Below are positions 655 through 40,076 of a DNA stretch of 64,000 nucleotides, piece after piece. The stretch is taken from the NCBI GenBank assembly GCA_016929515.1, contig JAFGIR010000016.1, positions 26,390 to 90,389 of the forward strand. Reading direction: 5' to 3'. The notes beneath the pieces are model-generated. The model was not told where the DNA came from. It made no database searches and saw nothing but the letters and a program-made list of their open reading frames with translations. This stretch comes from Pirellulales bacterium. GTDB lineage: Bacteria; Planctomycetota; Planctomycetia; Pirellulales; Thermoguttaceae. Numbering within the stretch: the stretch's first letter is position 1; each line of letters begins with the position of its first letter. The translations under genes and the position numbers were made by a program.

Positions 655-1077
655 TCAGACGGTGGCCACGCCGCCAGTCATTTCGCTCACGCGCACACAA
701 AACTTGTTGTTGAGCATGAAGATATCACCTCGGGCAATCAATCGACCGCCGACGAGAATCTCGACCGGTTCGTCGACCACTTTGTCCAAAGGCACGATGT
801 CACCTTGGCCCAGTTCAGACACGTTCTTTCGATGCATATAGGTGCGTCCCAAGTTGATCCTTGCGTCGAACTTCACGTCGCGCAACATGTCGAGTGTTGC
901 CGCCCGGGTCGTGGCGGCCGTGCCATGGAGTGGTGCCAGTTTGAATCGTCTCATTCCCGCCACCAATTCCTCGTGCGGATCGCGGCCATTCAAGTAGTCG
1001 CCTGCTGGCTTACTCGGGGTGGACAAGCCATCCGCATCCAGCTTCTCTCGACCGGCTAATTCGTTTCCATGTGTCAT
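655..1077 (-). CDS. fliN: flagellar motor switch protein FliN (SpoA domain)
   Basis: The C-terminal segment LGQGDIVPLDKVVDEPVEILVGGRLIARGDIFMLNNKFCVRVSEM is the typical FliN/SpoA surface-presentation domain. It lies in a flagellar gene run. Confidence 0.85.
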   Translation of the reverse strand: MTHGNELAGREKLDADGLSTPSKPAGDYLNGRDPHEELVAGMRRFKLAPLHGTAATTRAATLDMLRDVKFDARINLGRTYMHRKNVSELGQGDIVPLDKVVDEPVEILVGGRLIARGDIFMLNNKFCVRVSEMTGGVATV

Positions 1078-1119: not shown

Positions 1120-1560
1120 TTACCGGGCGTACTGGATCACGGCCATTTCGTCGAGCATCCTGGTTTCGCGTCGTTCACCTCGCTCGCGGTAGGCATCCTG
1201 TTGCTTCGCTTCGAGTTTCTCCAGAATTCGGACCTCGCGGTTGGCGGCAAGCAGCTCTTTACGGTGCCAGTTGATTGTGAGAGTCGCATCTTGTCGTTGT
1301 TTGGCAAGTTCGTCTTGTTGTGCGGTGAGGTGCTGATCATAGTGTCGGTACTCGATCAACCGATCGAGGCGGACTGCGCCCGGGGCAGCCGCTTCGCGAC
1401 ATTGGTCTAGGAGTCCGCTGCGTTGCCGGTCTAATTCCTCTTGGCGTTGGCCGATGATCTCGTCGGTGTGGCATGACTGGACCAATTGAGTACGACACAT
1501 GTCGCGCCGAGTTTTACGCACCAACAGGAGTGCTGCCAATCGAAACGTAGAATGTCCCAT
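1120..1560 (-). CDS. fliJ: flagellar export chaperone FliJ-like coiled-coil protein
   Basis: 146 aa, heptad-rich and charged (QQDELAKQRQDATLTINWHRKELLAANREVRILEKLEAKQQ). It lies immediately after fliI (6-nt gap), the canonical fliJ position. Confidence 0.6.
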   Translation of the reverse strand: MGHSTFRLAALLLVRKTRRDMCRTQLVQSCHTDEIIGQRQEELDRQRSGLLDQCREAAAPGAVRLDRLIEYRHYDQHLTAQQDELAKQRQDATLTINWHRKELLAANREVRILEKLEAKQQDAYRERGERRETRMLDEMAVIQYAR

Positions 1561-1566
1561 GATTAC

Positions 1567-2919
1567 CTATTCGGTTTCTTGGTCTTGCGGTTGTTCGGCC
1601 CGTGCCCGCAGCGCGAGCAGCTTGTCGCGAGCTTCATTCGGTTCGGACGGTTTGTCAGCGGTTTGGGTCAAGTAATCGTGAATGGCTTCTTGCATCTGTA
1701 CGGCCCGATCGACGGTCAGATTGGTGCCGGGCTGATAGGCGCCGACGGAAATCATGTCTTCGTGATCGCGTTGGGTGGCCAGCAGTTCTCGCACCATTGC
1801 AGCAGCTTGGCGATGCTCTTCATTGGTCACTGTCGGCATGACGCGGCTGAGACTTTCGAGCACGTCGATGGCTGGATAATGTCCCCGCGAGGCTAGTGTT
1901 CGTGAGAGCCACACATGGCCGTCGAGCAATCCACGGACTGCGTCGCTGATAGGTTCATTCGGGTCGTCCGCTTCGACCAACACGTTGTAGAAGGCGGTGA
2001 TGCTACCCAATTCGGCCTGTCCAGCTCGTTCGACCAGCTTGGGCAATGCGGCGAAGACCGACGGTGGATAGCCGCGCGTCGTGGGCGGCTCGCCAGCGGC
2101 CAGGCCAATTTCGCGTTGGGCTAAAGCGACCCGTGTGAGCGAGTCCACCAGCAAGAGGACATCCTTTCCCTGGTCGCGAAAATATTCAGCGATGGCTGTG
2201 GCGGTAGCTGCCGCATTGACACGGAGCATGGCCGGCTCGTCGCTGGTGGCGACGACGACCACGCTTCGGGTGAGTCCTTCGGGGCCGAGGTCGCGCCGGA
2301 GAAATTCACCCACCTCGCGTCCTCGCTCACCGATCAATCCAATGACGATGACCTCGGCCGAGCTGAAGCGAGCCATCATACCCAAGAGCACGCTCTTTCC
2401 GACGCCTGAGGCGGCGAAGATCCCCATGCGCTGTCCACGGCCACAAGTCAGCAGTCCGTCGATGGCCCGAATGCCCGTCGCCAACGGCGCGTCGATCGGA
2501 GGTCGACGGCACGGATGGGGAGGGCGACGGTCGAATGGTGCGCGGTTGCGGAGTGCCGGTGCGGGTGTGCCGTCGACGGCGTTGCCTTCGGCGTCGAGCA
2601 CGCGGCCAAGCAGTTCGTTGCCCACACGCAACCATCGCGACGTGCGGGCGAGTCGCACACGATTTCCGCGACGCACACCGCTGGAGTTGCCGAGCGGATA
2701 AAGGATAGTAGAGCTGTCACGAAATCCAATTACCTGAGCTCGAAGCAATTGTCCTCGGTCACGCTTGATCTCGGCGATTGCACCGACCGGCGCTGGAAAG
2801 CCGACAGCCGACACGGTTGTACCGACGGTTTGAGTCACGCGACCTGATAGGGCAGTCGGCAGAATCGCGTCGAGTTGTTCGGCAATGTTCAACATGGTTT
2901 CGCGCAGTGATTTTTTCAC
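1567..2919 (-). CDS. fliI: flagellum-specific ATP synthase FliI
   Basis: Walker A is AASGVGKSVLLGMM and Walker B is DVLLLVDSLTR. The F1/T3SS-ATPase layout is present, including YPPSVFAALPKLVERAG. The start is GTG at 2919; ATG at 2895 is an alternative. Confidence 0.95.
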   Translation of the reverse strand: MKKSLRETMLNIAEQLDAILPTALSGRVTQTVGTTVSAVGFPAPVGAIAEIKRDRGQLLRAQVIGFRDSSTILYPLGNSSGVRRGNRVRLARTSRWLRVGNELLGRVLDAEGNAVDGTPAPALRNRAPFDRRPPHPCRRPPIDAPLATGIRAIDGLLTCGRGQRMGIFAASGVGKSVLLGMMARFSSAEVIVIGLIGERGREVGEFLRRDLGPEGLTRSVVVVATSDEPAMLRVNAAATATAIAEYFRDQGKDVLLLVDSLTRVALAQREIGLAAGEPPTTRGYPPSVFAALPKLVERAGQAELGSITAFYNVLVEADDPNEPISDAVRGLLDGHVWLSRTLASRGHYPAIDVLESLSRVMPTVTNEEHRQAAAMVRELLATQRDHEDMISVGAYQPGTNLTVDRAVQMQEAIHDYLTQTADKPSEPNEARDKLLALRARAEQPQDQETE

Positions 2920-3021
2920 TTGTTGATAGCTGCGTTTATGACGTTCAGGTCGTTACAGGTGAGAACCATCAATAAGCCGGGCTTCCGTCAGGCGTCCTGC
3001 CTTCATTTAGCTATGCAGGTC
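2916..3021 (-). repeat. intercistronic conserved element, copy A (fills the whole fliH stop - fliI start gap)
   Basis: About 75% identical by eye over ~106 nt to 11965-12071. Shared blocks (minus strand) are CTGCATAGCTAA(A)TGAA, ACGGAA, CCTG(T/A)AACGACCTGAACGTC and GCAG(C/T)TATCAA(C/T)AAGTGA. Confidence 0.6.
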
Positions 3022-3687
3022 TTAATAGACGAGCTCTTCTTCGATCCGTGCCAGTTGGGTTTCAAACTGCTGGTCGATTACGCCGAAACAAGTATTGACG
3101 CGGCATCCGCCTGGACTAACCCCTTCGTCGGCTACCACCTCGACCGATCCGAGTCCGACAAGTTCCTTGGCAATTTCGTCGACCCGTACACCAAGGGTCT
3201 GAAGGTCGGTTGGGTTCAGATAAACGCGGATCTCGTCGTTGCCGACGGCCAACTCGAGCGCCTCGCGTACCAACGTTAGCGGAACATCGGGATGTGTGTC
3301 GAGTGAGCGGCGGATCAGCCGTTCGGCGATGGATATGGCCACATGGACCGCGTTCTTTTCCCAGTGGTTCAGCCAGGCTTGCTTGGCGTCTTGTATTTCT
3401 TGGACGACTGCTTCGATCGCCGATGTCAAGGTGCCCCATTGTTCGTTATTGTGTTGCGTGAGCATTTCGTACGCGGTGCGGCGTCCTTGAGTGGCTGCAT
3501 CGAGGCGAATATGTTCGGCCTGTTGTTTGGCCGTAGCGATGAGTCGGGCCGCCTCGTTGGAAAACGAGGTTCGATCAGGATCGGCGCGTTGGGTCAAGTC
3601 CACTAGATCAACCGTCCAGGGGCGAACGCTTGCGCAAGAGTTGCTCGCTTTGATGATTGTCGGCATGCGTGTCTTTTCGGACCTCAT
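3022..3687 (-). CDS. fliH: flagellar assembly protein FliH
   Basis: The C-terminal segment VVADEGVSPGGCRVNTCFGVIDQQFETQLARIEEEL is the FliH/T3SS stator signature. It lies between fliF-G and fliI. Confidence 0.75.
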   Translation of the reverse strand: MRSEKTRMPTIIKASNSCASVRPWTVDLVDLTQRADPDRTSFSNEAARLIATAKQQAEHIRLDAATQGRRTAYEMLTQHNNEQWGTLTSAIEAVVQEIQDAKQAWLNHWEKNAVHVAISIAERLIRRSLDTHPDVPLTLVREALELAVGNDEIRVYLNPTDLQTLGVRVDEIAKELVGLGSVEVVADEGVSPGGCRVNTCFGVIDQQFETQLARIEEELVY

Positions 3688-3720
3688 GTTTTCTTGGTGT
3701 CCAATTCGCGTCTCGCGACG

Positions 3721-6045
3721 TTATGGCGTCACGGAAAAAGCCATTTGTCCCACGTCCTCAGGCAATGACAATGTGCCGACGCCGGCAAGTGATTGGGCCA
3801 ACTCGATCAACCGTGATCGCGCGGCGTCGACATCACTCAGCCGCGTCAGCTTCAGGTGATCAAGCGATCGGCGAATTGTCTTGGCTTGCTCACGCGACCG
3901 CGAACTGAGCATCCGGTCTACAACGTCCTCGGTGGCACCAATCAGAGCCAGCGTCAGGACTTCGTCGCCAGCCGCCTCACAGAGTCGGGCTAGCGATCGG
4001 TTATCCCATTGGGTGAAGTCCTCGAAGTCAAAGGAATACGTGCTCTGATAGGCAGAGGACTCGAATTGAGCAGCCAATCGGCCGTCGCGCGCGACTAGGT
4101 TGTTCAGCAACTGCCGGCGGACCGGTTGTGGCGAAGCGTCGAGAATTGCGCTGATTGCGCTCAGGCCAGCCACGCGCCGCTCACGCATCGGAACTTGCTT
4201 GGCCAGCCGGGTATTCAGGCTCTGGTCGATCTCGTGAAGGACCTCCGGATCGGCCTGTTCGAGGTCGATCCATCGATGGATCACGTCGATCTGCACCTCG
4301 GGCGCGAAGCACACGAGCACCTGGCCTGCCCGATCCGGCTCAAGATGCGAAAGCACTAGGGCAATCGTCTGAGGCAATTCGCCAGTCAGAATTTGCGCGA
4401 TCCGTGGACAATTGGTTTGGCTTAGCAGTCCGAACGGCGCCGGTGTGACATCGTCGGTCGTCAGGGCCCGGTGTTCGATTAGCTGACGGGCCAGTTGGCT
4501 GTCCAACTCGATTCCGGAAAGATCCTCGTGAGCATCAGTCGTCGTGGCCAGGTGTCGCGGCTTGACCTTGCCGAGTTGATCTGCGCGACAGCTTCGTGTC
4601 TTTTGTAAGACGCGTTTTGCGATAGGCCGCGATGCAATAAAACCAGCGGCGGCCAGCACAATGACGCCCAGCGTGCTTCCGTACTCGGCCAATCTGGCAC
4701 GCAGAGATGTGTCCGCTACTTGTTCGGAGGTCATCGCCACTGGCGAATCGCGAAAGGGTACGACCGCAACCCACTCGGTCAAATCATTCATGCCTTCAAC
4801 GGTTGGCAATGCGGAAGCCACCAGCCGCTTGATTTCGCCGATTTCTCGCATCTGGACGGTTCGGAATGTGGCCTTTTTCGATTGTCGAGTCGGCACGCCC
4901 GCGGTCGAGGCATTTTGGTCTTGATCTCGCCAAATCTTCTCGAAGTAGCTGATGGGCACGCGAATGGACACACGAAAGGGCGGCACGACAACCGTTGCCG
5001 AAACCCTCTCGCCAGTGCTGGCGACCTCTTCATTGGTTGCCATCCTGCTTCGATTAACGATGGTCTCACCACTCCTGGTCCTCGGCAGCTCCCTTGCACG
5101 ATTGGAAACTGTGGCTGACCGTTCGTCGACGCTATCGCTCTCAACGGCGTGGTTGCGATTCGGTTCGGCCTGTTGTTCCAACGAGCTTGGCTCGGGCGAG
5201 GCCGCACTCGTGTGTTTCATGCGCGGCTGTGGCCGGTCCTCTACGGCCGTGGCGACGACGCTCACCCCGGGGATGAAATGCAGCAACCGCAGAATTCGGT
5301 CCTCGCAGTCTTGCTCCGCGGCTCGTTGGTCTTGGAGGTGGCTCCTGTCTTTCGCACCGACGTCGCCGTTAGCGAAATCAGGATAGCGGATGTGGTTGAT
5401 CTTGTCGAAGACGCGAATATCCTCGGGTCTCATGCCGGCCCAACTATAGGCAACTCGGTCACAGATCATGGCGCCCAGTTTTGGGTCGAGTTTTTTGCCG
5501 TGTTTCATGGTCAGATCAACCAAAGCGGTTCGAAGTGTCCGTTTGTTCAATCCGTGTCCCTCTTCTCGACTGTCGAGCGTGACGGTCGCCTTGGCGATTT
5601 CGGGGAATTCAGAGATTCCCGTTTCGAGTTTCTTCTCCTTGGCGCGGATGCAAAGTGCCTTCCTTTGGTCAAGGGGCATCCAGATTGAGCCGGCGTCAAT
5701 TGCGTCGTCCATGGGATCGTTCGACTTGGACGGCAAGGCGCCCACCCGGTCTAACGCGGCCAGGTACGGGGACCGCTCGCCTTGTGGAATGAAAAGTTGC
5801 GAGTTGCGGATGTCGAAGCGTAAGTGTGCCTCAGCCAAGGCAACTCGAATCGTGTTGAGCTGATCCTGGGAAAGCACTTGCTCGCCGAAGAGTGATTCTT
5901 GGGAATCGCCCCACAACGAGATGCCCAGGTAGGCTAGGCCGATCGCAGCAACCAATAACAACCCTCCGGCGACGATCCGTGAGTTGGGGGTCATCGAACG
6001 AACGTGGTTGAGAATCTGAGTGGGGAGTTGGTTGAGAAAGTCCAT
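3721..6045 (-). CDS. fliF: FliF (MS-ring) fused in one ORF to FliG middle and C-terminal domains
   Basis: aa 1-473 carry a TM at aa 24-44, a FliF/YscJ-type periplasmic region (QDQLNTIRVALAEAHLRF, KATVTLDSRE, RTALVDLTM) and a second TM at aa 456-473. aa ~536-774 carry FliG_M (ELPQTIALVLSHLEPDRAGQVL) and FliG_C (FDFEDFTQWDNRSL...LTLALIGATEDVVDRMLSSRSREQAKTIRRSL...LSDVDAARSRLIELA). There is no stop codon between the two halves. Confidence 0.9.
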   Translation of the reverse strand: MDFLNQLPTQILNHVRSMTPNSRIVAGGLLLVAAIGLAYLGISLWGDSQESLFGEQVLSQDQLNTIRVALAEAHLRFDIRNSQLFIPQGERSPYLAALDRVGALPSKSNDPMDDAIDAGSIWMPLDQRKALCIRAKEKKLETGISEFPEIAKATVTLDSREEGHGLNKRTLRTALVDLTMKHGKKLDPKLGAMICDRVAYSWAGMRPEDIRVFDKINHIRYPDFANGDVGAKDRSHLQDQRAAEQDCEDRILRLLHFIPGVSVVATAVEDRPQPRMKHTSAASPEPSSLEQQAEPNRNHAVESDSVDERSATVSNRARELPRTRSGETIVNRSRMATNEEVASTGERVSATVVVPPFRVSIRVPISYFEKIWRDQDQNASTAGVPTRQSKKATFRTVQMREIGEIKRLVASALPTVEGMNDLTEWVAVVPFRDSPVAMTSEQVADTSLRARLAEYGSTLGVIVLAAAGFIASRPIAKRVLQKTRSCRADQLGKVKPRHLATTTDAHEDLSGIELDSQLARQLIEHRALTTDDVTPAPFGLLSQTNCPRIAQILTGELPQTIALVLSHLEPDRAGQVLVCFAPEVQIDVIHRWIDLEQADPEVLHEIDQSLNTRLAKQVPMRERRVAGLSAISAILDASPQPVRRQLLNNLVARDGRLAAQFESSAYQSTYSFDFEDFTQWDNRSLARLCEAAGDEVLTLALIGATEDVVDRMLSSRSREQAKTIRRSLDHLKLTRLSDVDAARSRLIELAQSLAGVGTLSLPEDVGQMAFSVTP

Positions 6046-6098
6046 CTATATTACAGACCCTTGATAGTTTTTTCCCGACAAAAGGGTTGCACGCGTTC

Positions 6099-6398
6099 CT
6101 ATACACGAATGTCCTGGACTTCGTGGTACGCACTGACCAATTGGTCTTGGATTTGCATCATTACGTGCACTGTCATGTCAGCCTGCCGCGAGGGGGCCAG
6201 CACGTTGGTCGGATTGATCGCACCGCCGGCCAATGAAGAGGCCGTCTGATCGGTATTCGCCGCCGAGACATTGAGTTTGCTCACACAGTCGATCAGCATG
6301 TCCTTGAACGCTGCAGGATCGTTCGGCATTTCGAGTTTGCCCAATCCTTGAATCGGTAGATGCCGGGAGAAGCAAGTAGGACTGATCGGGTTCATCAT
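6099..6398 (-). CDS. fliE: flagellar hook-basal body complex protein FliE
   Basis: 99 aa. The C-terminus ADMTVHVMMQIQDQLVSAYHEVQDIRV matches the conserved FliE tail. It lies directly upstream of fliF. Confidence 0.8.
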   Translation of the reverse strand: MMNPISPTCFSRHLPIQGLGKLEMPNDPAAFKDMLIDCVSKLNVSAANTDQTASSLAGGAINPTNVLAPSRQADMTVHVMMQIQDQLVSAYHEVQDIRV

Positions 6399-6420
6399 TT
6401 TCGATTTCCATGGCAGCGCG

Positions 6421-7275
6421 TCATGCGACGGCCTTCATGACCTGTTGCGGAATGCATAGAGTGAATGCAGCACCTCCATCGGGACAATTCACGGCGGTGA
6501 TGTGTCCGCCGTGAGCCTCGATCATGTGATGCACCAGCGCCAAACCCAGGCCTGTCCCAACCGACTTCGAACGAAAGAAGGGTTCGAACATTCTGTCGCG
6601 TGTCGCTTCGGACAGTCCAGGTCCCGTGTCGGCCACCTCCAATTCCAGGCCTCGGTCGGTCCACGCCGACGTGATAGTCAGCGTTCCGCCTTCGGGCATG
6701 GTGTCAACCGCGTTGAGCATCAGATTGACCAACGCCTGCCTAATCATGTCGCGGTCTGCCCACAACGTTTGCGACCCGGGCACGTCGACCACCGTGTCAA
6801 TCGACTGCGCGTCGATCCGCCGGGCCAGAGACTCCAGAATCTCGTCGATCAGTTTGGTCAACGAAAAAGCACATAGTCGCGGATTGCGATCCGAAGCGAG
6901 ATATAGAAATCCGCGCACCGAAGCATCGACCACCACGAGATGAGCTTCAATCTTGCCCAGGAGATCTGATCCGATTGGGTCATCGGTGATACGACGCCGC
7001 AGCAGACTCAGATTGAGCGAAACAGACGCGAGATGGTCTCGCACCTCGGCGGCGATTCGCGAGGCCAGCCGTCTCAGATTGGCCAGGCGACCATCGTGGG
7101 TGGGTTGGCCACGAGGGGCTTCCGCCTCGGTGGTCAGTCGCCGAATCTGTTCTCGCAGTGCTTCATGGGTTTGTTCCAACTGCAAAGTGGCTGTATGCCA
7201 TGCGGTCAGCATCGACTCCAAGTCGGACCGCATTGCATGGGGCGTTGCCTTAGCTATCGCGGCGCTCTTGTCCAT
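6421..7275 (-). CDS. soluble sensor histidine kinase (HisKA + HATPase_c)
   Basis: The H-box region is AAEVRDHLASVSL, the N box is LVNLMLNAVDTMPEGG and the G boxes are VADTGPGL / GTGLGLALV. There is no TM segment. I chose the start at ATG 7275 (MDKSAAIAK, GGAAAGAG upstream); the ORF stays open up to 7479. Confidence 0.8.
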   Translation of the reverse strand: MDKSAAIAKATPHAMRSDLESMLTAWHTATLQLEQTHEALREQIRRLTTEAEAPRGQPTHDGRLANLRRLASRIAAEVRDHLASVSLNLSLLRRRITDDPIGSDLLGKIEAHLVVVDASVRGFLYLASDRNPRLCAFSLTKLIDEILESLARRIDAQSIDTVVDVPGSQTLWADRDMIRQALVNLMLNAVDTMPEGGTLTITSAWTDRGLELEVADTGPGLSEATRDRMFEPFFRSKSVGTGLGLALVHHMIEAHGGHITAVNCPDGGAAFTLCIPQQVMKAVA

Positions 7276-7854
7276 CGGTTTCTTCTCTTTCCGACCCGAT
7301 CGCGTTGATCGTTGGTCTTCCAGCAAGCACGTCTCGCGCCTACCAAACCACTGCTTGCGTGCACGCGCTTCGATAATCAAGGCAGGGCGATGCAAACGAC
7401 GCCATGCCAACCAAACCGCTGAGATCGTTAAATGCAAAGTCTTCAAAAGTGCGAGGTCTCCGCCGAACCGCACCGTCATCGGCTGCGTCTGCCCGACGAG
7501 AGGAACGGGTCAGGTCCGGTGAGGACACCGAGCGCGAGCGTCGAGGAAAAGGTGGGCGGGTTGTACTCGAAAGACCGTTTGAGTGTCAATGCAAATTCGC
7601 CAGCCCCACCAGACGGGGGGCAGTAGTCTGCTTTGGTCAAGAACTTGGGCCAGACAAGAGACGTGTGGTGCGAATCAGGCTGTCGAAAGCCAACGAGAAG
7701 GGTGGCGGAGCATAGCGCTTATTCTGCCCCAGAGCACTCAGGATTGGGCGTTCATTACGCTTACTGTCACAGCACCTTGGATAGGCTGATTGAAGTCACA
7801 TGCTGAATCGAAGACTCTGGTTGGTTGGGGTCTCGGGCCATTGGCCCGTCAAAA

Positions 7855-9167: not shown

Positions 9168-10118
9168 TCAGCACGAGCATAGGTCGAGTTGCGTCATCTT
9201 TTCGACTAGTCGTTTCGTGGCGGCCACGCTCTTCTGAAACTGGGCGCGTTCCTCGTCGGTCATGTCAAATTCGACAATTCGTTCGACGCCTTGGGCTCCG
9301 AGTATAACAGGTACACCTACGCAGTAGCCGCCCACGCCGTATTCCTTGTCACAATAGGTGGAGCATGGAATTAGACGTTTCTCGTCGCGGATCACTGCCT
9401 CAATCATTCGCATCGTGGCCGCTCCCGCCGCGCAGGACGCACCGGTCTTCATCAAGCTGACAAGCTCTGCGCCGCTGTCGCGTGTGCGTTGGACCACTTG
9501 CTTCAGGCGGTTAGGCTTGATCAGTTGATCGACGGGAATACCGCCGACCGACGAACAACGAGTCAGTGGTACCATCGTGTCGCCATGACCGCCGATCAAC
9601 ATGGCATTGATGTCTTCAACGCGGACGCCCAATTCCATGGCTAGATAGGTGCGGAGCCGGGCCGTGTCAAGCAAGCCTGCCTGACCAATGACACGGTGAG
9701 GCGGAAAGCCGGTGGTCTGCAGTGCCTGCTGTGTCATGGTGTCGAGCGGATTGGTCACGACGATGACAATGGCCTCGGGGCTGGTGTCGCGCACTTGCCG
9801 GGATGCGAACGCGACGATCTTCGCGTTTACTTCGAGAAGCTCATCGCGGCTCATGCCCGGTGTCCGTGGTTTGCCGGCGGTGATGACGACTACGTCGCTA
9901 TCGACGGTATGCTCGTAACTGCCGGAGCCGATGATCGAGAGGTCGAATCGCATGATCGGGGCAGCATGGATCAAGTCAAGCGCTTTGCCTCGGGCGATGT
10001 CGCCTCCGTTGCGAGTGTCAACGAGAACCAGGTCGCCCAACTCGGCCGCCGCACACCAATGCGCCGTCGTGGTCCCGACGTGCCCGGCTCCGACGATCGT
10101 GATCTTCGGTCGCTTCAT
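9168..10118 (-). CDS. mdh: malate dehydrogenase (LDH-like type)
   Basis: Motifs KITIVGAGHVGTTTA, VVITAGKPRTPGMSRDEL, VVTNPLD and IGGHGDTMVP are near-canonical for LDH-like Mdh. Confidence 0.95.
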   Translation of the reverse strand: MKRPKITIVGAGHVGTTTAHWCAAAELGDLVLVDTRNGGDIARGKALDLIHAAPIMRFDLSIIGSGSYEHTVDSDVVVITAGKPRTPGMSRDELLEVNAKIVAFASRQVRDTSPEAIVIVVTNPLDTMTQQALQTTGFPPHRVIGQAGLLDTARLRTYLAMELGVRVEDINAMLIGGHGDTMVPLTRCSSVGGIPVDQLIKPNRLKQVVQRTRDSGAELVSLMKTGASCAAGAATMRMIEAVIRDEKRLIPCSTYCDKEYGVGGYCVGVPVILGAQGVERIVEFDMTDEERAQFQKSVAATKRLVEKMTQLDLCSC

Positions 10119-10120
10119 AA

Positions 10121-11581
10121 CTAGGTGTTCCTTGAGTTGGTCTCGGGATTGCTCTGGTTCGAACCGCCTTGCTCGATACTCGCAAAGTCAAACTGATTTT
10201 CGTCGTCCAGGCTCGACGCATCAGACTTTGCCAAGGGGCTGTGAGGGTTAATCCGGTTGCGTGTCGCTTGGCGAAAACGGCGGTCGGCCCGGCTGCGGAC
10301 AAGCAACCAGAGCCAAATACCTACCAGAATCAACACGAACATCACCCCGCCCACGGCGCCCCAAATCGACATAGCGTCTGTGGTGCTCCGCCCGCCCCAA
10401 ACTGGCTCGCTTCCAATCAGCAGCGGCGCCAACTGAAGCGGAGCATTGCCGTCAGCCGCCGCGCAAACGAGGGCCGAACGATAGGCTCTGCTCTTCAGAA
10501 AAAAACCGGCAACCGTCACCGGCTCGGAATACTCTGGGCCGTCACCGAGTGGCATGTTCTTCGGCACGTCGAGGACACAAAACACCAACGGGTTGCCCTG
10601 TGAATCTCTGGGGAACAGAGAGAGTTCGAAGTAATGATCGATGCCAAATCGCCGACGAATATCCGGATCCTCGACGCGTACTCGGAGCGCGCGGCGAACC
10701 GTGCCGGAGAACATTACCAGCTTGCCGTGTTGTCGGGCCGGATCGTTGAACAACGGCACAACCGAATAGCAACCGTCGCCGCGTTCGGCAAGCTGGCGAC
10801 GAGCTTCTTTTCGAAGTTGTCCCGGTTGAGCCCGTTTCACGGCGGCCAGCATCTGATAAAAGCACTCTCGCTCTTCGTTGCGGATGGGCTGCCGGTCGAC
10901 CAGATCGTCCAGTAGCCCCACGTCCATTCCGAGTTGTCCCAACAATTGATCGTCGGGAAAAAAGGCAAGTCGTGGCGCGGCAAATATCGGCAATTGCTGG
11001 GTGTCGTTGGCAAATCGCAAATACATCCCCCAGGCCTCGCCCGGCTGATTGATCGTGCCACCTTGATGCCACGTCTTCGGAACCGTCCTTGAGAAGACCA
11101 CGACGGGTTGCCCGGTGCCATTGAGCAGCATTTCGACGCGATAGTACTGCTTCACTTCAAAACGGCGAGCTACGTCAGCCGCCAGCCTCACCACGGCGAT
11201 TGAGCGGATGCGTCCACGCAGACGAAAGAACCGTCCTCGAAACGCGTTGGGATCGGCACGGATCCGGTCCCAATCGATCACATCGCTCGACCAACGCTCG
11301 AAATCGTCCGGCGAAAGCCTTGCCAATCGGAGGAGAATCCGTTGCAGTGTCTCGTCGGATTGCCCAGTCCAAGGGCGAGTATCCTGGAACTCGGCCCACT
11401 CGTCGTCATCGATGCCACCCAGCCGCAACCATTGTTGGGGCTCCGTCAATAAGTTGGCTGAAGAGTGATTCGACACATCGGCTCGAACGGTACCTATTGT
11501 CCAGAAAGCGGCAGCCGCCCAAAACAGTACCCTCGCAACGCGGAGTGAATTTGCGATCGTCGTGACATACATGATTGGCAA
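10121..11581 (-). CDS. hypothetical secreted/membrane-anchored protein (two internal copies of a module shared with 12072-12992)
   Basis: It has an N-terminal signal-like segment (RVLFWAAAAFWTIGTVRA) and a C-terminal TM (IWGAVGGVMFVLILVGIWLWLLV). The stop abuts the mdh start. The module G.LV..G...RA...Y....P.D..V.C.L..P...P.G..EP....GF..K is repeated. Confidence 0.7.
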   Translation of the reverse strand: MPIMYVTTIANSLRVARVLFWAAAAFWTIGTVRADVSNHSSANLLTEPQQWLRLGGIDDDEWAEFQDTRPWTGQSDETLQRILLRLARLSPDDFERWSSDVIDWDRIRADPNAFRGRFFRLRGRIRSIAVVRLAADVARRFEVKQYYRVEMLLNGTGQPVVVFSRTVPKTWHQGGTINQPGEAWGMYLRFANDTQQLPIFAAPRLAFFPDDQLLGQLGMDVGLLDDLVDRQPIRNEERECFYQMLAAVKRAQPGQLRKEARRQLAERGDGCYSVVPLFNDPARQHGKLVMFSGTVRRALRVRVEDPDIRRRFGIDHYFELSLFPRDSQGNPLVFCVLDVPKNMPLGDGPEYSEPVTVAGFFLKSRAYRSALVCAAADGNAPLQLAPLLIGSEPVWGGRSTTDAMSIWGAVGGVMFVLILVGIWLWLLVRSRADRRFRQATRNRINPHSPLAKSDASSLDDENQFDFASIEQGGSNQSNPETNSRNT

Positions 11582-24924: not shown

Positions 24925-27084
24925 ATGGCTACGGTGAGCAATCCTCGCGCAGATTTCCTTGGCTCGGCACAACGCGCTGCCGAGTTGATTCTGCCGATCG
25001 GCGTGGTTGCCAGCGTGCTGGTCATCATCGTGCCGATGTACGCCGGTTTGATGAGCTTGCTTCTGTCGGCCAATATTACGGTGGCCGTCATCATCCTGCT
25101 AACCACGATCTACGTGAAGACCCCGCTGGAGTTCAGCATTTTTCCGTCGCTGTTGTTGGCCACGACCTTGGCCCGACTCGTGTTGAATGTGGCCACGACG
25201 CGGCTGATTCTCACCGGCGCGGAAACCGAGGGACTGTACGCGGCCGGCGGGGTAGTCCGTGCGTTCGGTGAGTTCGTGGCCGGCGACAAAGTTGTGGTCG
25301 GGCTGATCATCTTTGTCATCATTGTCGTGATACAGTTCGTGGTCATCACCAAAGGGGCCACGCGGATCAGCGAGGTGGCCGCCCGATTTGCTCTCGACGG
25401 AATGCCTGGCCGGCAAATGGCCATCGACGCCGACCTGAACGCGGGTCTGATCGACGAACACGAAGCCCGGAGACGCCGCGAAGAGATCACGGCGCAGGCC
25501 GATTTTTTCGCGGCCATGGATGGGGCAAGCAAGTTTGTGCGGGGCGATGCGATTGCCGGAATTGTCATCACCTTGATCAATATCCTTGGTGGGCTATTCA
25601 TCGGCGTTGTTCAGACCGGCATGTCCGTGGGCGAAGCGGCTGAGTTGTTTACGAAGTTGACCATTGGCGATGGACTGGTCAGCCAAGTGCCCGCGTTATT
25701 GATCTGCCTAGCCGCCGGTCTGCTAGTAACACGAAGCACTACAGCAACGAATCTGCCAGGCGAGTTTGTCCACCAGTTGCTCCGCCATCCACAGACGTTG
25801 GTCACAGCCGGTCTCTTCTTAGGCCTTCTGGCCTTCACCTCGCTGCCGCGATTCCCGTTGTTGCTGCTTGGTTCGATTTGTGTCGCGCTGGCAATAGTCC
25901 TTTCGCGCCGGACCCGACAAACCAGACTGCGGTCCGAGGCCGATCGCGTCGCCCGGGAAGCCGTGTCTACGGACCAACGCGTCGAAGACTGTCTCACCAC
26001 GAGTCCTATCGAGTTCGAACTGGGACTCGGATTGCTTCGGCTGGCCGATCCCCGTCGGGGGGGCGATCTGATGCAGCGGATCCAGAACGTTCGCCGCAGC
26101 ATCGCCACGGACCTCGGTATCATCTTGCCCAAGGTGCGAATGCGCGACAATCTCCAGTTGCCCCACAACGAGTATCGGATCAAGCTCGATGGCATCCCTA
26201 TCGCCGGTGGACAGATTTCCGCCAACCAGCGTCTCGCGATCGATGCCGGAAACACGACCGGTCAGGTGCCCGGCACGTCGACTGTTGATCCGGTATCCGG
26301 GTCGCGTGCACTCTGGATCGATTCCAACCTGGGGGATCAGGCCGAGCGTTGCGGATACACGGTAGTCTTACCCGGCGACGTACTGGCCAACCACTTGACG
26401 GCTTTGGTTCACGAACACGCCGACGAGTTGCTCACCCGGGACGCCACGAAGCACCTGATCGACGAGTTGAAGCAGACTTCGCCGGCCGTGGTCGACGAGT
26501 TGGTGCCAAGCGTGATGAAATTGGCCGAGGTGCAGCAGATTCTCCAGATGCTGCTTCGCGAACAAGTGCCGATTCGGCAGTTGGGTGTCATCCTCGAAGC
26601 ACTCGGCGAGTGCGCATTGCGAACGAAGGACCCGACGCTACGAGCCGAACATGTCCGCAGCCGGTTGGCCCGGACACTTTGCTCAGCCCATCGTGATCCG
26701 GAAAACCGGCTTCATTTGGTCACACTCGATCCGGCCCTGGCAGATCGGATTCACTCAGCCGTGGAACACGACGAGCGAGGTATGTTTATCCGGATGTCAC
26801 CGCAAGTGATCGAGGAAATCGGCCGACTCATCGCCACGAAAATCGAGTTGTTGACCGAGGCCGATTATCCGCCCGTGCTCCTGGTCGACCCGCAAATTCG
26901 GCCCGCCGTTCGTCGCATTACTGAATTGCAGATTCCAAAGTTGACCGTGCTGAGCTACAACGAGATCACGCGGGACACGAAGCTCGAATCGGTAGCAATG
27001 GTTGGGAGTTCAGGGATTGGGGATTTTTGGATTGATGACCGTGGGCAAGAACCCGTGGAACGTCATGGACGATCGAAAAGTTGA
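24925..27084 (+). CDS. flhA: flagellar export apparatus protein FlhA
   Basis: The canonical FlhA block is FVVITKGATRISEVAARFALDGMPGRQMAIDADLNAGLIDEHEARRRREEI. There are 8 TM segments plus the cytoplasmic domain. Confidence 0.95.
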   Translation: MATVSNPRADFLGSAQRAAELILPIGVVASVLVIIVPMYAGLMSLLLSANITVAVIILLTTIYVKTPLEFSIFPSLLLATTLARLVLNVATTRLILTGAETEGLYAAGGVVRAFGEFVAGDKVVVGLIIFVIIVVIQFVVITKGATRISEVAARFALDGMPGRQMAIDADLNAGLIDEHEARRRREEITAQADFFAAMDGASKFVRGDAIAGIVITLINILGGLFIGVVQTGMSVGEAAELFTKLTIGDGLVSQVPALLICLAAGLLVTRSTTATNLPGEFVHQLLRHPQTLVTAGLFLGLLAFTSLPRFPLLLLGSICVALAIVLSRRTRQTRLRSEADRVAREAVSTDQRVEDCLTTSPIEFELGLGLLRLADPRRGGDLMQRIQNVRRSIATDLGIILPKVRMRDNLQLPHNEYRIKLDGIPIAGGQISANQRLAIDAGNTTGQVPGTSTVDPVSGSRALWIDSNLGDQAERCGYTVVLPGDVLANHLTALVHEHADELLTRDATKHLIDELKQTSPAVVDELVPSVMKLAEVQQILQMLLREQVPIRQLGVILEALGECALRTKDPTLRAEHVRSRLARTLCSAHRDPENRLHLVTLDPALADRIHSAVEHDERGMFIRMSPQVIEEIGRLIATKIELLTEADYPPVLLVDPQIRPAVRRITELQIPKLTVLSYNEITRDTKLESVAMVGSSGIGDFWIDDRGQEPVERHGRSKS

Positions 27085-27134
27085 TTTTTATGACGAGCAG
27101 ATACAAGACTGCTTTTCCGCAGGATGAAATAGCC

Positions 27135-28370
27135 ATGGAAGTAAAAACCTATCGCGCGGCAAGTATGTACGAAGCGTTGCAGATGGTGCGTTGCGACTTG
27201 GGACCAGAGGCCGTCGTGATGCAGACACGGAACGTACGGTCACGCCGGCTGCTTGGTTTATTTGCCAGGCCGCATCAGGTCGAGGTCACCGCTTCGGCCG
27301 GAGTCAACGTGCCTAGCCGTCTACCCTCGCTGCGACCGACAGTTGCGGCCGCGGCATCGGCCGGCCCCCAGGGTCTCGCAACGTCCGAGGGGCTGTCGGT
27401 GCTCGACGCCCATGCTCCCGCCCAGCCTATTGATCGCCCTGCTGCGGGCGCCACGGCCGGATCTCGACCAGCGTTGGAGGGACAACTGAGAGGACAGGCG
27501 ACGCGTTTGCAGGGCATGGTGCAGGATCTCTGCCGCCGGCCGGACGTCCGCTTGCGGCACGACTTGCCAGACTCACTCTTCCGGCTGTTTACCGATTTGA
27601 TCGACGTGGACATTGACGAGACAACGGCCGGCGCGCTAATCGAGCGGGTCCGTGCGGAGGCACCCAATGTCGAACTGACCGACCCGGTCTTGGTCAAATC
27701 GCGGATCGCGAGAATTATCGAGTCGGAAATCTCGGTCGCCGGACCGATCCACGTGATGCCCGGACAACACAGGCTTGTGGCTTTGGTGGGACCGACGGGC
27801 GTGGGCAAGACGACGACGATCGCCAAGTTGGCGGCCAACTATCGTCTCAAACGTCGCCTAAACGTGGGCCTGATCACGGTCGACACGTATCGCATTGCCG
27901 CTGTTGAGCAATTGCGAACGTATGCCGACATCATCGACTTGCCGATGCAAGTGGTTTCAACACCGCGCGAGATGCGTCAGGCCGTGCGACGATTGTCTGG
28001 ACTCGATCTGATTCTGATGGATACGGCCGGCCGCAGCCCACGCGATGAAATCAAGATTCAGGAACTCAAGGCATTTCTTACCGAAGCCGGGGCCGACGAA
28101 GTCCATCTCGTGCTCAGTAGCATGGCCGGGGCTCGAAGTCTGGAGCAAACGGTCGATCGATTCGCCGCAGTGGGAACCACGTCCCTGATCCTCACCAAGC
28201 TCGACGAAGCTGCGGGCTTGGGCAACCTCCTCCCCCTACTTCAATCAGACGCATTGCCTTTGAGCTACTTGACCAACGGCCAAAACGTGCCCGACGACAT
28301 CGAAACCGCAGAGCCAACGCGACTGGCTAATCTGATCCTGTCTGGAGAATCCTCTGGAAACGACTGGTAA
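27135..28370 (+). CDS. flhF: flagellar biosynthesis SRP-type GTPase FlhF
   Basis: The N-terminus is MEVKTYRAASMYEALQMVRCDLGPEAVVM. G1 is LVGPTGVGKTTTIAKLA, with DTAGRS and TKLDE also present. The start is taken at ATG 27135 rather than 27081. Confidence 0.9.
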   Translation: MEVKTYRAASMYEALQMVRCDLGPEAVVMQTRNVRSRRLLGLFARPHQVEVTASAGVNVPSRLPSLRPTVAAAASAGPQGLATSEGLSVLDAHAPAQPIDRPAAGATAGSRPALEGQLRGQATRLQGMVQDLCRRPDVRLRHDLPDSLFRLFTDLIDVDIDETTAGALIERVRAEAPNVELTDPVLVKSRIARIIESEISVAGPIHVMPGQHRLVALVGPTGVGKTTTIAKLAANYRLKRRLNVGLITVDTYRIAAVEQLRTYADIIDLPMQVVSTPREMRQAVRRLSGLDLILMDTAGRSPRDEIKIQELKAFLTEAGADEVHLVLSSMAGARSLEQTVDRFAAVGTTSLILTKLDEAAGLGNLLPLLQSDALPLSYLTNGQNVPDDIETAEPTRLANLILSGESSGNDW

Positions 28371-28385
28371 GCCAATCTTGTCCCA

Positions 28386-29336
28386 ATGATGGTCATATCT
28401 CCCGAGCAAGAAATCATGATCGATCAGGCGAATGAACTTCGGCAACTCATTCGGCAACAGACCGAGCAGTTGACCAGAGCGGCGAGCACCCGACCGAGAA
28501 TCATCGCCGTTACCGGCGGCAAAGGCGGCGTCGGCACCACCACGGTCGCGACCCATCTGGCCATCGCAATGTCGCGTCAATCCGATCGCGTGCTACTGGT
28601 CGATGCCGATCCCGATCGGGCTGACGTGGCCACGCTGTGCGGGCTCGCGACGGACTACGATTTGGCTGATCTGGTCGAAGCGCGCCGAACGCTCGATGAA
28701 GTGATTGCGCCGGGACCCAACGGAATCTTGGTGCTCACCGGCGCGGGACGTGCTGCAGCCACCGAGCCGTCAACCGATCGTTTCCATCAGCGGTGGATTC
28801 GAGCCGCACGCGAGGCGGAAGAGCCTTTTGACTGTGTGGTCGTCGACACGGGTAACCGCTCGGCGCGCTCGGTCAAGATGCTTTGGGAAGCGTCTGATCT
28901 GGTGCTCTTGGTGACTACAATCGAACTGCCCTCGATCATCGACACCTACGCTTCGATCAAGACATTGGCCAAGCGAACCTCTCCGCCGGCGATCCACACC
29001 CTGATTAATCGAGTTACCGAGACGGCGGTCGCCTACGACGCGCACGGGCGGCTTGCGCGAGCGGTTTGGCGATTCCTGGGCTTTCATTTAGATAGCGCCG
29101 GACACGTGATGGTCGGACAAGACCTATCGGCAAACTTGGCCGATCAGGATCTTGCGTCATCGGAATCGCTGTGGGCACGAGAATTCAACCAACTGGCACG
29201 GACCATGCGGATCGCCTTGCGCGGGGCGGAAGGGAGAGATAGGTGTATCTTCGCCGAAAGGTCTACGGCATGCTTCGCTCAGAATTTGCCGGTCCCCTTG
29301 TTGCCACCGGAAGCCAATCCGGGAACAGCCGTCTGA
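28386..29336 (+). CDS. flhG: MinD/ParA-type ATPase FlhG (FleN/YlxH-like) with non-canonical P-loop
   Basis: It has IAVTGGKGGVGTTTVATHLA plus VLLVDAD. It sits between flhF and fliA, the conserved flhG slot. Confidence 0.8.
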   Translation: MMVISPEQEIMIDQANELRQLIRQQTEQLTRAASTRPRIIAVTGGKGGVGTTTVATHLAIAMSRQSDRVLLVDADPDRADVATLCGLATDYDLADLVEARRTLDEVIAPGPNGILVLTGAGRAAATEPSTDRFHQRWIRAAREAEEPFDCVVVDTGNRSARSVKMLWEASDLVLLVTTIELPSIIDTYASIKTLAKRTSPPAIHTLINRVTETAVAYDAHGRLARAVWRFLGFHLDSAGHVMVGQDLSANLADQDLASSESLWAREFNQLARTMRIALRGAEGRDRCIFAERSTACFAQNLPVPLLPPEANPGTAV

Positions 29337-29770
29337 TCGGCCACCTGACGAGAAACCAAGAAAACCCGGAGCTATGACGGAAGAATGACTCAACCCGGGA
29401 CAATCGGCGTCCGATAGAGTGACCACCACCAATAGGCACTTTGCCGCTAAACTACATAAATCACGTCAGCTTTGAGCTATCGAGACCCTCAACGCCGTGT
29501 ATCAGATGCAAAGATTCGAGCGGGGACAGTGACGTTGGAACAACGTGGCGAGATGAGCCACGGGGCACCGTCTCGTGGTTCACCAAGCCCCTTTTGCTGC
29601 AAAGACACGATAGAAGCGATGCAGCCCGAGCGCCACGCGTCGCGTATCAAGGATTATCGGATCGGGAGGGTGCCGCCCGCCAAGGCCTTGTTCGCCGCGC
29701 GAGGTGAGCCAAAGCGGACCGCACGCTCTTGATCCCCTGGCTGCCGAAGAGCATGATCACGGAGGATTGC

Positions 29771-30553
29771 ATGGCAACCACTTTTGTATCCGAGGACGTC
29801 GAACAGCTTTGGGTCGAGTTCAAGAAGGATACGACGAATCAGGAACTGCGCAATCGGCTCATCGAAATCTACTTGCCCTTGGTCAAGTATAACGGTGAAC
29901 GGATTTGGGCTCGGCTGCCGGACGGCGTCGAGTTGGACGATCTGATTTCGGCCGGCGTCTTTGGGCTGATGGACGCGATCGACGCTTTTGATCTGTTGCG
30001 CGGGGTGAAATTTGAGACTTATTGCGTTCCTCGAATCCGTGGCGCAATGCTCGACGAACTCCGCACGATGGATTGGGTGCCCCGATTGGTCCGTTCGAAG
30101 GCCAGCAAACTCAACGAAGCCATGAAAACGCTTCAGGCCCAGTTGGGTCGCATGCCGAACGAAAATGAGTTGGCTCAGCACATGAACGTTACCTTACCCG
30201 AAATCGAAAAAATGCTGCTCGATGCCAACGCGGTCAGCCTGATCAGCTTGAACAAAAAATGGTATGAGACAGATAGCTACAAGGACGTCCGCGAAATTGA
30301 TATTCTCGAGGACAAGAAGGGCGAGGATCCCACGCGACGCGTCCAGAAGGCCGATCTCATGCGACTCGTGACCAAAGGCCTCAACCGCAACGAACGGCTT
30401 ATCATCATCCTCTATTACTATGAAGAGCTAACGATGAAGGAAATCGGTGCCACGCTGCGCTTGAGCGAAAGCCGCGTCAGCCAGATGCATAGCTCGATTG
30501 TCCAGCGACTTCAGGAACAACTCGGCCGACGGCGCCCCGAGTTCGGCGGGTAG
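29771..30553 (+). CDS. fliA: flagellar sigma factor FliA (sigma-28 family)
   Basis: Region 2 is LRNRLIEIYLPLVKYNGERI...GVFGLMDAIDAFD. Region 3 is present. Region 4 is ERLIIILYYYEELTMKEIGATLRLSESRVSQMHS. The ATG at 29771 is preceded by GGAGGA (29761-29766). Confidence 0.9.
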   Translation: MATTFVSEDVEQLWVEFKKDTTNQELRNRLIEIYLPLVKYNGERIWARLPDGVELDDLISAGVFGLMDAIDAFDLLRGVKFETYCVPRIRGAMLDELRTMDWVPRLVRSKASKLNEAMKTLQAQLGRMPNENELAQHMNVTLPEIEKMLLDANAVSLISLNKKWYETDSYKDVREIDILEDKKGEDPTRRVQKADLMRLVTKGLNRNERLIIILYYYEELTMKEIGATLRLSESRVSQMHSSIVQRLQEQLGRRRPEFGG

Positions 30554-34870: not shown

Positions 34871-35730
34871 GTTCCTTTTCTCCTAATGCGGGAACAGAAT
34901 AGGGGGACCAGTCGTGCGCGCTAGCGCGTAGACAGCCAGCGAATCACCTTCATAAACCGCGTGATCGCTCAGGAGTGTCGATTAATTCCAAAGGAATCGT
35001 CAGCTCTAGTCTGTTTGGGGGGATCTATTTAATCTGTAGTAGCAAAGTAAGTAAATTGGGAGACTTGGCGTACATTCTCGTGGCCATTTTCTCGCCGACA
35101 ATAGCCTGGAGCGACGGTTTCGTCCCAGACATAACACAAGACTTTGCCAATGTTGTCCGCCCCCCGGCTAGCCCCTATAATCCACCGATTTTCGCCAACG
35201 AACTCTTCTTACTGAAGATGCGTATAGTAGTCCGGCGGCTGGCTCATCAGGTTTTCCGCCTTGGAGAACAGGCCACCTGATGACACAATAGACCGGTGGC
35301 AGAGGATGTTGCAGCGAAGCCCCATCGTCGTGTTGCCGATTGTCGACAAGGTCGACCAAGAACAACCGACCTGGAGTGATTTTCGAAGACGTGTGTGTGT
35401 TGCAGTGGCCACCTTGAATACGATTGACAACGTTGGCACTCTTGCCCGAGACTGTCACAGACGTTACAAGTCATTAAGAAACCAGTATTTGATACGACTC
35501 GGGCATTAGAGAATTGTTTGGACCGAAATCACGGGGTGGTCGATGATCCGGATGGGCCGAGTTCACTTGCACCCGTCAGGAACTGCCCACGATAGATTTG
35601 CGCGGTGCTCCTTAGCCGCCGGTGAACAATCGCATAGCGAACGAAAAGGTATGATTTCGAGACGTTGAAGGAGGCCGGGCATTCGTTCCGGCGCGTCTTG
35701 CCCACTGCGATCCTTGGGAGAAACAAAGGG

Positions 35731-36009
35731 ATGCATATTCACGGCCCGTCTCATTTGCACGGCCCTCAGCCGGTCGGCGCGCCACACTCATCTCGCGTGG
35801 CGAAGTCCGACACGACGACCTTTTCGGGTCCGATTCAAGACGAACTCCAGATTTCCGATGCGGCTCGACTAATTGAACAAGTCAAGCAGACTCCTGACAT
35901 CCGTCAAGATCGCGTTGACGCCATCCGGCAGCAGATTGCAGCCGGCACTTACGAGACGCCCGAGAAGCTTGACATTGCGTTGGATCGGCTTCTGGACGAG
36001 ATCGGTTAG
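35731..36009 (+). CDS. flgM: anti-sigma-28 factor FlgM
   Basis: 92 aa. The C-terminal segment IRQDRVDAIRQQIAAGTYETPEKLDIALDRLLDEI is the FlgM signature. The start is taken at ATG 35731 (MHIHG). Confidence 0.75.
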   Translation: MHIHGPSHLHGPQPVGAPHSSRVAKSDTTTFSGPIQDELQISDAARLIEQVKQTPDIRQDRVDAIRQQIAAGTYETPEKLDIALDRLLDEIG

Positions 36010-38083: not shown

Positions 38084-38341
38084 CACAGGTTTCCTTTTTG
38101 TGAGGACCGGTAACAAAGGGGGGCTACAAACATGGTCACCACCGGCTCGCGCCACCTCCAACGGTTTCTGGCCGTGGAAGGCCCTTACGAACCGACGGGT
38201 GGTTAGGGAATAAACGCGATGAGGCCCCGGTTTTCGGTCCTCCGGGCACCGCTTCGCCATGGCCTGATCACCGTCAGGATGTTCCACAAGGCTTTCTGCT
38301 TGCTTTCTCGTATCGTCTTGTGAGCGTTTCCACGACCGCGA

Positions 38342-39916: not shown

Positions 39917-40076
39917 CATGATCTTCCTTTGATTGAGGTGGGCAGGACGCATGCCGCGAAATGGGAGGAATATGGGTTGATGCCGCAAGAAACAGTAGGG
40001 CCGATCGGCGCGACTCGGCCAAGGCAAAACAAAGCGGTGTGCGGTTTCCTTGTTGTAAACGCTCTCGACGACGTGA

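Follow-up and report, generated by a model that had tools for sequence, protein, structure and literature searches.

We have found a natural gene in which the flagellar MS-ring protein FliF and the rotor protein FliG form one polypeptide, and from which the FliG N-terminal domain (FliG_N) is missing. The gene lies in a stretch of 64,000 nucleotides (hereafter the window) of contig JAFGIR010000016.1, from the metagenome-assembled genome (MAG) of a Pirellulales bacterium. It occupies positions 3721..6045 of the minus strand as a single open reading frame (ORF) of 774 codons, and its 774-aa product is recognized by Pfam as YscJ_FliF plus FliG_M plus FliG_C. In flagella, the FliF C-terminal tail and FliG_N fold together and in this way dock the C ring onto the MS ring. 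Neither of these two modules could be found in the fusion. The ORF is uninterrupted, starts with ATG, contains zero N, and its G+C content at third codon positions (GC3) is coding-like over the full length, junction included. The protein is identical to JW888_00545 at NCBI, annotated in a Pirellulales MAG. A preliminary description of the window had already reported one uninterrupted 774-codon ORF at these positions; our reading, free of ambiguous bases, bears out its extent and amends its strand to minus.

Anatomy of the fusion protein

The FliF half (all coordinates of the fusion are on the minus strand) starts with a transmembrane helix, TM1 (aa 24-46; 5908..5976), detected by hydropathy and found as helix 20-46 in an AlphaFold2 (AF2) model built on 45 aligned sequences, with a mean predicted local distance difference test (pLDDT) of 74. 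Three ring-building motifs (RBMs) follow: RBM1 (aa 47-105; 5731..5907), RBM2 (aa 120-225; 5371..5688) and RBM3, the S-ring domain (aa 228-435, with a disordered insert at 271-350; 4741..5364). A second transmembrane helix, TM2 (aa 452-474; 4624..4692; AF2 helix 452-487), was again apparent from hydropathy, and the spacing from TM1 to TM2, 410 aa, equals that of canonical planctomycete FliFs. Hidden Markov models (HMMs) of the RBMs built from these canonical proteins matched RBM1 (E 1e-23), RBM2 (E 3e-36) and both halves of RBM3 (E 2e-17 and 6e-27). The corresponding AF2 domains were 49-101 for RBM1 (pLDDT about 90), 125-221 for RBM2 and 231-267 plus 357-431 for the RBM3-like part, whose alpha/beta elements had pLDDT values of 80-93. 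RBM3 is the domain that makes the S-ring and the collar around the rod. In the Pfam search, YscJ_FliF (PF01514) matched aa 57-215 (E 5e-12; 46.5 bits over a cut-off of 24.4), and Foldseek related RBM2 to the RBM2 of FliF and to EscJ. No Pfam match to YscJ_FliF_C (PF08345) was obtained in the fusion protein. Judged from sequence and model, the FliF moiety appears complete (TM1, RBM1-3, TM2) save for its cytoplasmic tail.

The FliG half consists of the middle domain (aa 536-620; 4186..4440) and the C-terminal torque-helix domain (aa 671-762; 3760..4035), as the preliminary description had recognized in the C-terminal part. FliG_M (PF14841) matched aa 548-617 (E 7e-20, 71.4 bits) and FliG_C (PF01706) aa 671-761 (E 4e-15, 56.3 bits over a cut-off of 23.3). 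Foldseek recovered structures of both FliF and FliG-MC. Sequence matches in the PDB were all FliG middle-plus-C-terminal constructs (E 1e-24, with 4fhr and 1lkv among the structures matched), plus an engineered Vibrio FliF-FliG fusion. The TIGR00207 model of FliG aligned to aa 516-759 through its positions 92-326 of 338, leaving positions 1-91 unmatched. The protein falls below the cut-offs of both full-length equivalogs (120.8 bits against 226.7 for TIGR00207; 12 bits against 129.75 for TIGR00206, the FliF model) because the docking modules are gone.

The junction between the two halves is short. It had been described at first as a linker of some 60 aa, and it is really made up of about 35 disordered residues (aa 475-507; 4525..4623; pLDDT below 50), variable in sequence and kept in length, then a conserved FliG helix of the type 'SGIELDxxLARxLI' (aa 508-525; 4471..4524), which is the first retained FliG element, and finally a 10-aa spacer. 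In the AF2 model, residues 482-514 are disordered and are followed by a short helix (516-524), a short spacer and the confidently modelled FliG_M (539-614) and FliG_C (640-756), with no folded domain between TM2 and FliG_M, where FliG_N would sit. The helix ('SGIELDxxLARRLI') is kept in stand-alone Pirellulales FliG, directly behind FliG_N, and also in the fusions, where it has no such domain beside it to pack against.

The comparison with the separate proteins of relatives indicates what has been lost. Normal planctomycete FliFs (about 550 aa) have a tail '...SLRDELxxxVxEDPDxAANILRxWI...' some 80 residues past TM2, and neither the fusion protein nor any frame of the DNA contains the DPDxAANILRxWI-type motif. 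In stand-alone Pirellulales FliGs, which measure 330-345 aa, the N-terminal domain (PF14842; about 70 aa) is followed by a 'PSG(I/V)ELDxRLARRL' motif, a proline-rich spacer and FliG_M. The fusion aligns with them from aa 509-525 ('LSGIELDSQLARQLIEH') to the C-terminus with 40-45% identity, and PF14842 has no Pfam match in it. When FliF tails and FliG N domains of canonical planctomycete proteins were used as tblastn queries, no match was obtained near the junction or anywhere in the window, in any frame, and the two modules have therefore been deleted rather than hidden by a frameshift. The absence of FliG_N claimed in the preliminary description is thus upheld by three approaches (HMM scan, AF2 and tblastn in all frames), the scan having found YscJ_FliF, FliG_M and FliG_C and neither FliG_N nor YscJ_FliF_C. 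Its further proposal, that a covalent link stands in for the non-covalent FliF-C/FliG-N interface, is likewise supported at the sequence level by the absence of both modules and by the position of the gene at the ancestral locus (see next section).

Within the close subfamily of fusions, the linker shares 9-19% identity with relatives and shows zero indels, whereas identity reaches 50-78% in the GIELD helix, 56-74% in FliG_M and 41-53% in FliG_C. Selection on the fusion would then be domain-specific, conserving FliG_M and the GIELD helix and not the linker sequence. The distance from TM2 to the GIELD helix was 36-42 aa in 10 fusions and 75-84 aa in a second group.

We have also checked the functional residues of the FliG half. 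In the FliM-binding EHPQR motif, the equivalents of E. coli FliG E125, P127, Q128 and R160 are kept (E556, P558, Q559 and R591 of the fusion) and H126 is changed to L. In the torque helix, the equivalents of K264, R281, D288, D289 and R297 are I, E, R, S and R, that is, R297 alone is kept. A 'charge swap' specific to the fusion was considered and rejected, since stand-alone Pirellulales FliGs have identical atypical residues, again with R297 alone kept; it is a trait of the clade and not an effect of the fusion. Deeper planctomycete FliGs (P0243, P0244) retain the classic torque-helix charges. These data suggest a different rotor-stator interface in the order Pirellulales.

Spread and origin of the fusion family

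The fusion is confirmed, as far as sequence can do so, as a natural single polypeptide. It was also present on a separately assembled Logan contig, and a JGI metagenome, an NCBI MAG and a Logan assembly, each assembled independently, all contain its relative P0002 (49% identity, 768 aa), which shares its architecture and its neighbouring genes. When 1.84 billion representatives were searched with HMMER, about 20 clusters of proteins of 576-818 aa, mutually less than 50% identical, were matched by both halves, so that related genomes do share the architecture. A metagenome scan added two more fused loci (L089 and L091). Those members that carry a name come from Pirellulales, Thermoguttaceae or Pirellulaceae MAGs. 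YscJ_FliF, FliG_M and FliG_C were found together in 21/21 aligned members. PF14842 also matched 13 of these 21; all of these matches overlapped FliG_M, and we rejected them as evidence of FliG_N because they are cross-hits between ARM repeats.

A few candidates deserve separate mention. P0030 (836 aa) is the sole member with a true FliG_N, joining FliF to a complete FliG on a single contig, and the sequence at the join suggests that a normal fliF has been read through out of frame into fliG. In P0031 (locus L173, 10001-12211), a HATPase_c remnant, FliF and FliG_MC share one ORF; the contig stems from long reads, and several of its genes are split. Both P0030 and P0031 may be sequencing artefacts. 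Two loci, L014 and L015, were considered as frameshifted fusions and discarded: L014 belongs to a long-read assembly in which many genes are split, and L015 has a short, RBM3-less FliF with a normal tail beside a normal FliG.

The origin of the fusion can be approached by comparing it with about 30 canonical loci, in which the genes run in the order histidine kinase (HK), sigma-54 response regulator, flgB, flgC, fliE, fliF, fliG, fliH, fliI, fliJ, x, fliK, flgD, flgE, x, fliN and fliO onwards (x, other gene), frequently with an esterase gene upstream. The fused genes are preceded by mdh, the esterase gene and HK and followed by fliH, fliI and fliJ. They therefore occupy the ancestral fliE-fliF-fliG-fliH slot, which points to an in-frame deletion joining adjacent genes. 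In the simplest history, this deletion would have run across the 3' end of fliF and the 5' end of fliG, removing the FliF C-terminal tail (about 55 aa) together with the N-terminal ARM domain of FliG (about 70 aa).

In a neighbour-joining tree of FliG_MC the fusions were not monophyletic (P0042 fell with L009 and P0031 with L015, both unfused), and the tree, with no support values and long branches, is too weak to count fusion events. A divergent fusion group (P0143, P0153) is located behind a MerR gene instead. Recurrent fusion is plausible from these sequence comparisons. Reduced operons without fusion are also known: L009 has a normal FliF and FliG in a compact operon, and in L015 a FliF of 374 aa (2965-4089), which lacks RBM3 but has RBM1, RBM2, TM2 and a normal tail for binding FliG, adjoins a normal fliG. 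As these two are reduced and yet unfused, compaction of the operon would have taken place before the fusion or independently of it. The L015 FliF resembles an SctJ with a tail. In L037 (7395-8387) and L122 (5346-6002), a divergent, full-length FliG-like gene stands behind mdh and the esterase with no other flagellar gene nearby. Such a gene, with 25-27% identity to the FliG part of the window fusion, was also seen in L024, L036 and L044. The lone genes of the L037/L122 type may be a scattered fliG or a paralogue.

A shrinking flagellar cluster and the role of the fusion

We consider that the fusion probably serves a working, streamlined flagellum in the window organism, although with real room for doubt. 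This reading is favoured because fliE is intact and flhA, flhF, flhG, fliA and flgM are present in the window. Immediately upstream of the fusion, on the same strand, is fliE (99 aa; 6099..6398; PF02049, E 2e-10), and next to it an HK gene (6421..7479) of 352 aa, compared with 456 aa for its canonical neighbour, in which HATPase_c only was found; the sigma-54 response-regulator partner is absent from this locus. Downstream, also on the minus strand, are fliH (3022..3687; PF02108), fliI (1567..2919; ATP-synt_ab and T3SS_ATPase_C), fliJ (1120..1560; PF02050 on the identical gene in L004) and a short fliN of 140 aa (655..1077; PF01052), compared with 219 aa in canonical relatives. A second cluster on the plus strand (24925..30553) contains flhA (24925-27084; FHIPEP, E 1.6e-240), flhF (27081-28370; SRP54 GTPase), flhG (28386-29336; MinD/ParA-type ATPase) and fliA (29729-30553; sigma-70 regions r2/r3/r4). 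The anti-sigma-28 gene flgM (35665..36009, plus strand; PF04316, E 2e-12) adjoins fur.

The fusion is presumably the only FliG of the window organism. The preliminary description had seen no separate fliG between fliF and fliH, and this holds for the whole window, since tblastn detected no second fliG in the 64 kb. The rotor would then work as follows, if anatomy and the laboratory analogue of Salmonella discussed below are a guide. One FliG would be built into every MS-ring subunit, and the C ring would lack the inner sub-ring that FliG_N and FliF_C form. This sub-ring has been described as 'relatively separated' and linked to FliG_M via a disordered loop and HelixNM (PMC11528121). Between TM2 and the FliG part, with its FliM-binding FliG_M and its stator-facing FliG_C, there would be a flexible tether of some 35-40 aa whose length is under constraint. 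FliN and, where it exists, FliM would complete the switch complex just as they do in relatives, and the surface turned towards the stator would not differ either.

Several observations weigh against a working flagellum. Genes for the rod, hook, filament and stator, as well as fliM, were looked for without success in the 64 kb and in all fused loci, and the unannotated large ORFs of the window gave no match to rod, hook or filament proteins even at E values up to 1. A second, stand-alone fliG could still exist elsewhere in the genome. Besides, sister lineages with the fusion show decay of FliE, FlhB, fliHIJ, HK, and RBM1 or RBM3. The comparison comprised 11 fused loci (the window, L001, L085, L086, L087/88, L089, L091, L172, L173, L169 and L170). 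All 11 are without the response regulator, flgB and flgC upstream and without fliK, flgD and flgE downstream, and fliN comes directly after fliJ. The HK gene shrinks from 456 aa in canonical loci (compare L012, region 3667-6458) to 352 aa in the window, then to 284-292 and finally to 165-179 aa, with HATPase_c alone left. FliN goes from 219 aa in canonical operons to 140 aa in the window and 70-119 aa elsewhere, by loss of its N-terminal extension. Only the window and L091 have an intact FliE; that of L001 is a truncated form of 66 aa, and the other loci have none. FlhB is of full length in L001 (18880-19959), with GPGS instead of the NPTH cleavage site, and measures 246-265 aa, with no FlhB_CC, in L085 (17333-18130), L086 (18781-19548) and L087 (15351-16133); fliHIJ are missing from L087/L088. 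In the FliF half, HMMs did not detect RBM1 in P0023-27, L089 and L091 or RBM3 in P0027, P0031, P0042 and L091, and RBM2 alone is universal across the family. Of all the carriers of the fusion, the window organism is the least reduced.

This pattern is what would be expected if the fusion were the core of a flagellum-derived relic without rod, hook and filament, an explanation that we regard as possible but rather unlikely for the window organism. Such a relic would comprise an export gate of the inner membrane (FliPQR, FlhB and FlhA, with or without FliHIJ) inside a FliF ring bearing FliG and FliN. It would act in secretion or in another non-motility function, as has been proposed for the chlamydial FliF-FliG/FliI/FlhA set. 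Besides the graded losses in FliE, FlhB_CC/NPTH, fliHIJ, fliN (70-140 aa) and RBM3, it is favoured by the consistent lack, in 11/11 fused loci, of the sigma-54 regulator and of the rod and hook genes that flank the fusion slot in the canonical loci, and by a precedent (Chlamydiaceae) in the same Planctomycetes-Verrucomicrobia-Chlamydiae (PVC) superphylum. However, the window organism itself keeps three RBMs, an intact fliE and flhF, flhG, fliA and flgM, and these last four count against a relic because such regulators make sense only with late flagellar genes. Since some Pirellulales scatter their flagellar genes (the lone fliG of L037 and L122), a gene missing from the locus may still be present in the genome. 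In addition, the same compact operon occurs without fusion in L009, where FlhB is complete (9338-10420; NPTE at the site), and the torque region of FliG_C is conserved as in canonical relatives.

A more far-reaching version of the same idea, which we hold only tentatively and would rank as improbable, is that the basal body is being rebuilt into a rod-less machine of the inner membrane. The fusion would then mark a Pirellulales clade and at least one lineage with another gene context, and the Chlamydiaceae relic would be the end point of the same path. If this were true, the machine would have a FliPQR/FlhBA gate encircled by a FliF ring that is centred on RBM2 and to which FliG and FliN are covalently bound. 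FliG_MC would have a conserved role independent of the flagellum, for example in docking the gate or the ATPase or in rotating something else.

The fusion might also coexist with a canonical FliF/FliG pair located elsewhere, as an accessory or as a component of a second system. We find this quite improbable. Divergent stand-alone FliG-like genes do occur in some Pirellulales (L024, L036, L037, L044), but the fusion sits in the ancestral slot with the only set of fliH, fliI, fliJ, fliN and fliO-R/flhB seen. The window contains no second fliF or fliG, and no stand-alone FliG tagged JW888 or JW719 appeared among the matches listed (120 of 620 in one listing). Finally, a frameshift or chimeric join merging separate fliF and fliG genes, or a recent pseudogene, is a worry raised by the metagenomic source of the DNA and by the apparent read-through in P0030, but has next to no chance of being correct given the independent assemblies and about 20 divergent clusters with the same architecture, the missing modules that leave no trace in any frame, the coding-like GC3 across the junction and the conserved linker length.

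Other features of the window can be mentioned briefly. A sulfotransferase gene (23437-24582, minus strand) is found directly before flhA, as in related loci, where it comes after flhB; this arrangement points to an inversion with respect to L085/L086. Three large ORFs (592, 561 and 524 aa) without Pfam family are located at 36509-41651 of the minus strand, the last two sharing the same weak matches, as paralogues would. A protein of 561 aa with many EF-hand calcium-binding repeats is encoded at 33185-34870, also on the minus strand.

Comparison with known systems

Canonical Pirellulales and Thermoguttaceae (e.g., L007 and L012) have the same locus and neighbours as the window fusion, and their FliF and FliG are 25-30% and 38-45% identical, respectively, to its two parts. 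There, however, the two proteins are coded by two genes, a FliF with the '...DPDxAANILRxWI' tail and a FliG with PF14842, and the operon is extended on its upstream side by a response-regulator gene, flgB and flgC, and on its downstream side by fliK, flgD and flgE.

The FliF:FliG ratio of the flagellar motor has been established as 34:34 by cryo-electron microscopy. The preliminary description had connected the fusion with a 1:1 stoichiometry and the symmetry mismatch between MS ring and C ring; the fusion does agree with 1:1, and the mismatch angle is outdated, as the ratio was already settled. An engineered FliF-FliG chain of Vibrio that assembles into rings (PDB 8z4d/8z4g; PMC11481574) is also similar to the fusion (PDB match E 1.6e-23). 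Unlike the window protein, it is man-made, measures 945 aa and keeps both FliF_C and FliG_N.

The preliminary description had left in doubt whether natural fusions of this type had been catalogued, and there is one precedent. A natural FliF-FliG fusion has been reported in the Chlamydiaceae (CT719 family), in a non-flagellated host (Bergeron, 2016; PMC4768692). It is the only published natural fusion that we found, and in the literature searched we found no report of planctomycete FliF-FliG fusions. It is also a natural FliF-type ring protein fused to FliG_M, with no FliG_N, and from the same superphylum. The chlamydial protein differs in its size (about 330 aa) and its composition (RBM2 and one RBM-like domain, no RBM1 or RBM3, a FliG_M fragment of about 50 aa and no FliG_C), and its host has few flagellar genes, while the window protein has three RBMs and complete FliG_M and FliG_C. 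The chlamydial NCBIfam model, PRK05934, scored 33.9 bits against the window protein (cut-off 297), and its C-terminal positions (about 290-338) weakly matched the start of FliG_M in planctomycete fusions. By this sequence comparison, the window protein is not a member of the chlamydial family. The graded series of reduced clusters may nevertheless connect true flagella with the chlamydial remnant.

The closest functional analogue, by its architecture, appears to be a deletion fusion of fliF and fliG in Salmonella. This mutant was reportedly also described by Francis et al. in 1992 and by Thomas et al. in 2001. In it, FliF has lost 56 C-terminal and FliG 94 N-terminal residues, and the cells are flagellated and motile, with a strong clockwise bias, a smaller C ring and a lower speed (Sakai et al., 2019; PMC6445934). 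This agrees with the statement in the preliminary description that in-frame fusions remain functional in Salmonella. Suppressor mutations in FliG, FliM and FliN relieve these defects (PMC6445934). Both proteins are single chains without FliF_C and FliG_N and with an intact FliG_MC; the 94 residues gone from FliG in the mutant include the start of HelixNM. With TM2 of Salmonella FliF at 445-470 (PMC4768692), about 34 residues separate TM2 and FliG in the mutant, compared with 36-42 in the natural fusions. There are differences as well. The Salmonella fusion is a spontaneous laboratory mutant with impaired motility, and the planctomycete fusion is a natural and conserved family with a linker of conserved length, which keeps the conserved helix that follows FliG_N in canonical Pirellulales FliG.

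These data indicate that a rotor design otherwise known only from a handicapped laboratory strain has arisen anew in nature and has long been maintained. With FliG tethered straight to the MS ring, the inner FliF_C-FliG_N sub-ring would no longer be needed. The tether of 36-42 aa, the GIELD helix and the short FliN would be natural compensatory solutions that can be compared with the Salmonella suppressors. From the family one can also read which parts of FliF are expendable: RBM1 and RBM3 are each absent from some members, whereas RBM2 is always present. The fusion is, in short, a natural, conserved and internally variable version of the classic Salmonella rotor mutant, in a lineage whose flagellar cluster is shrinking.

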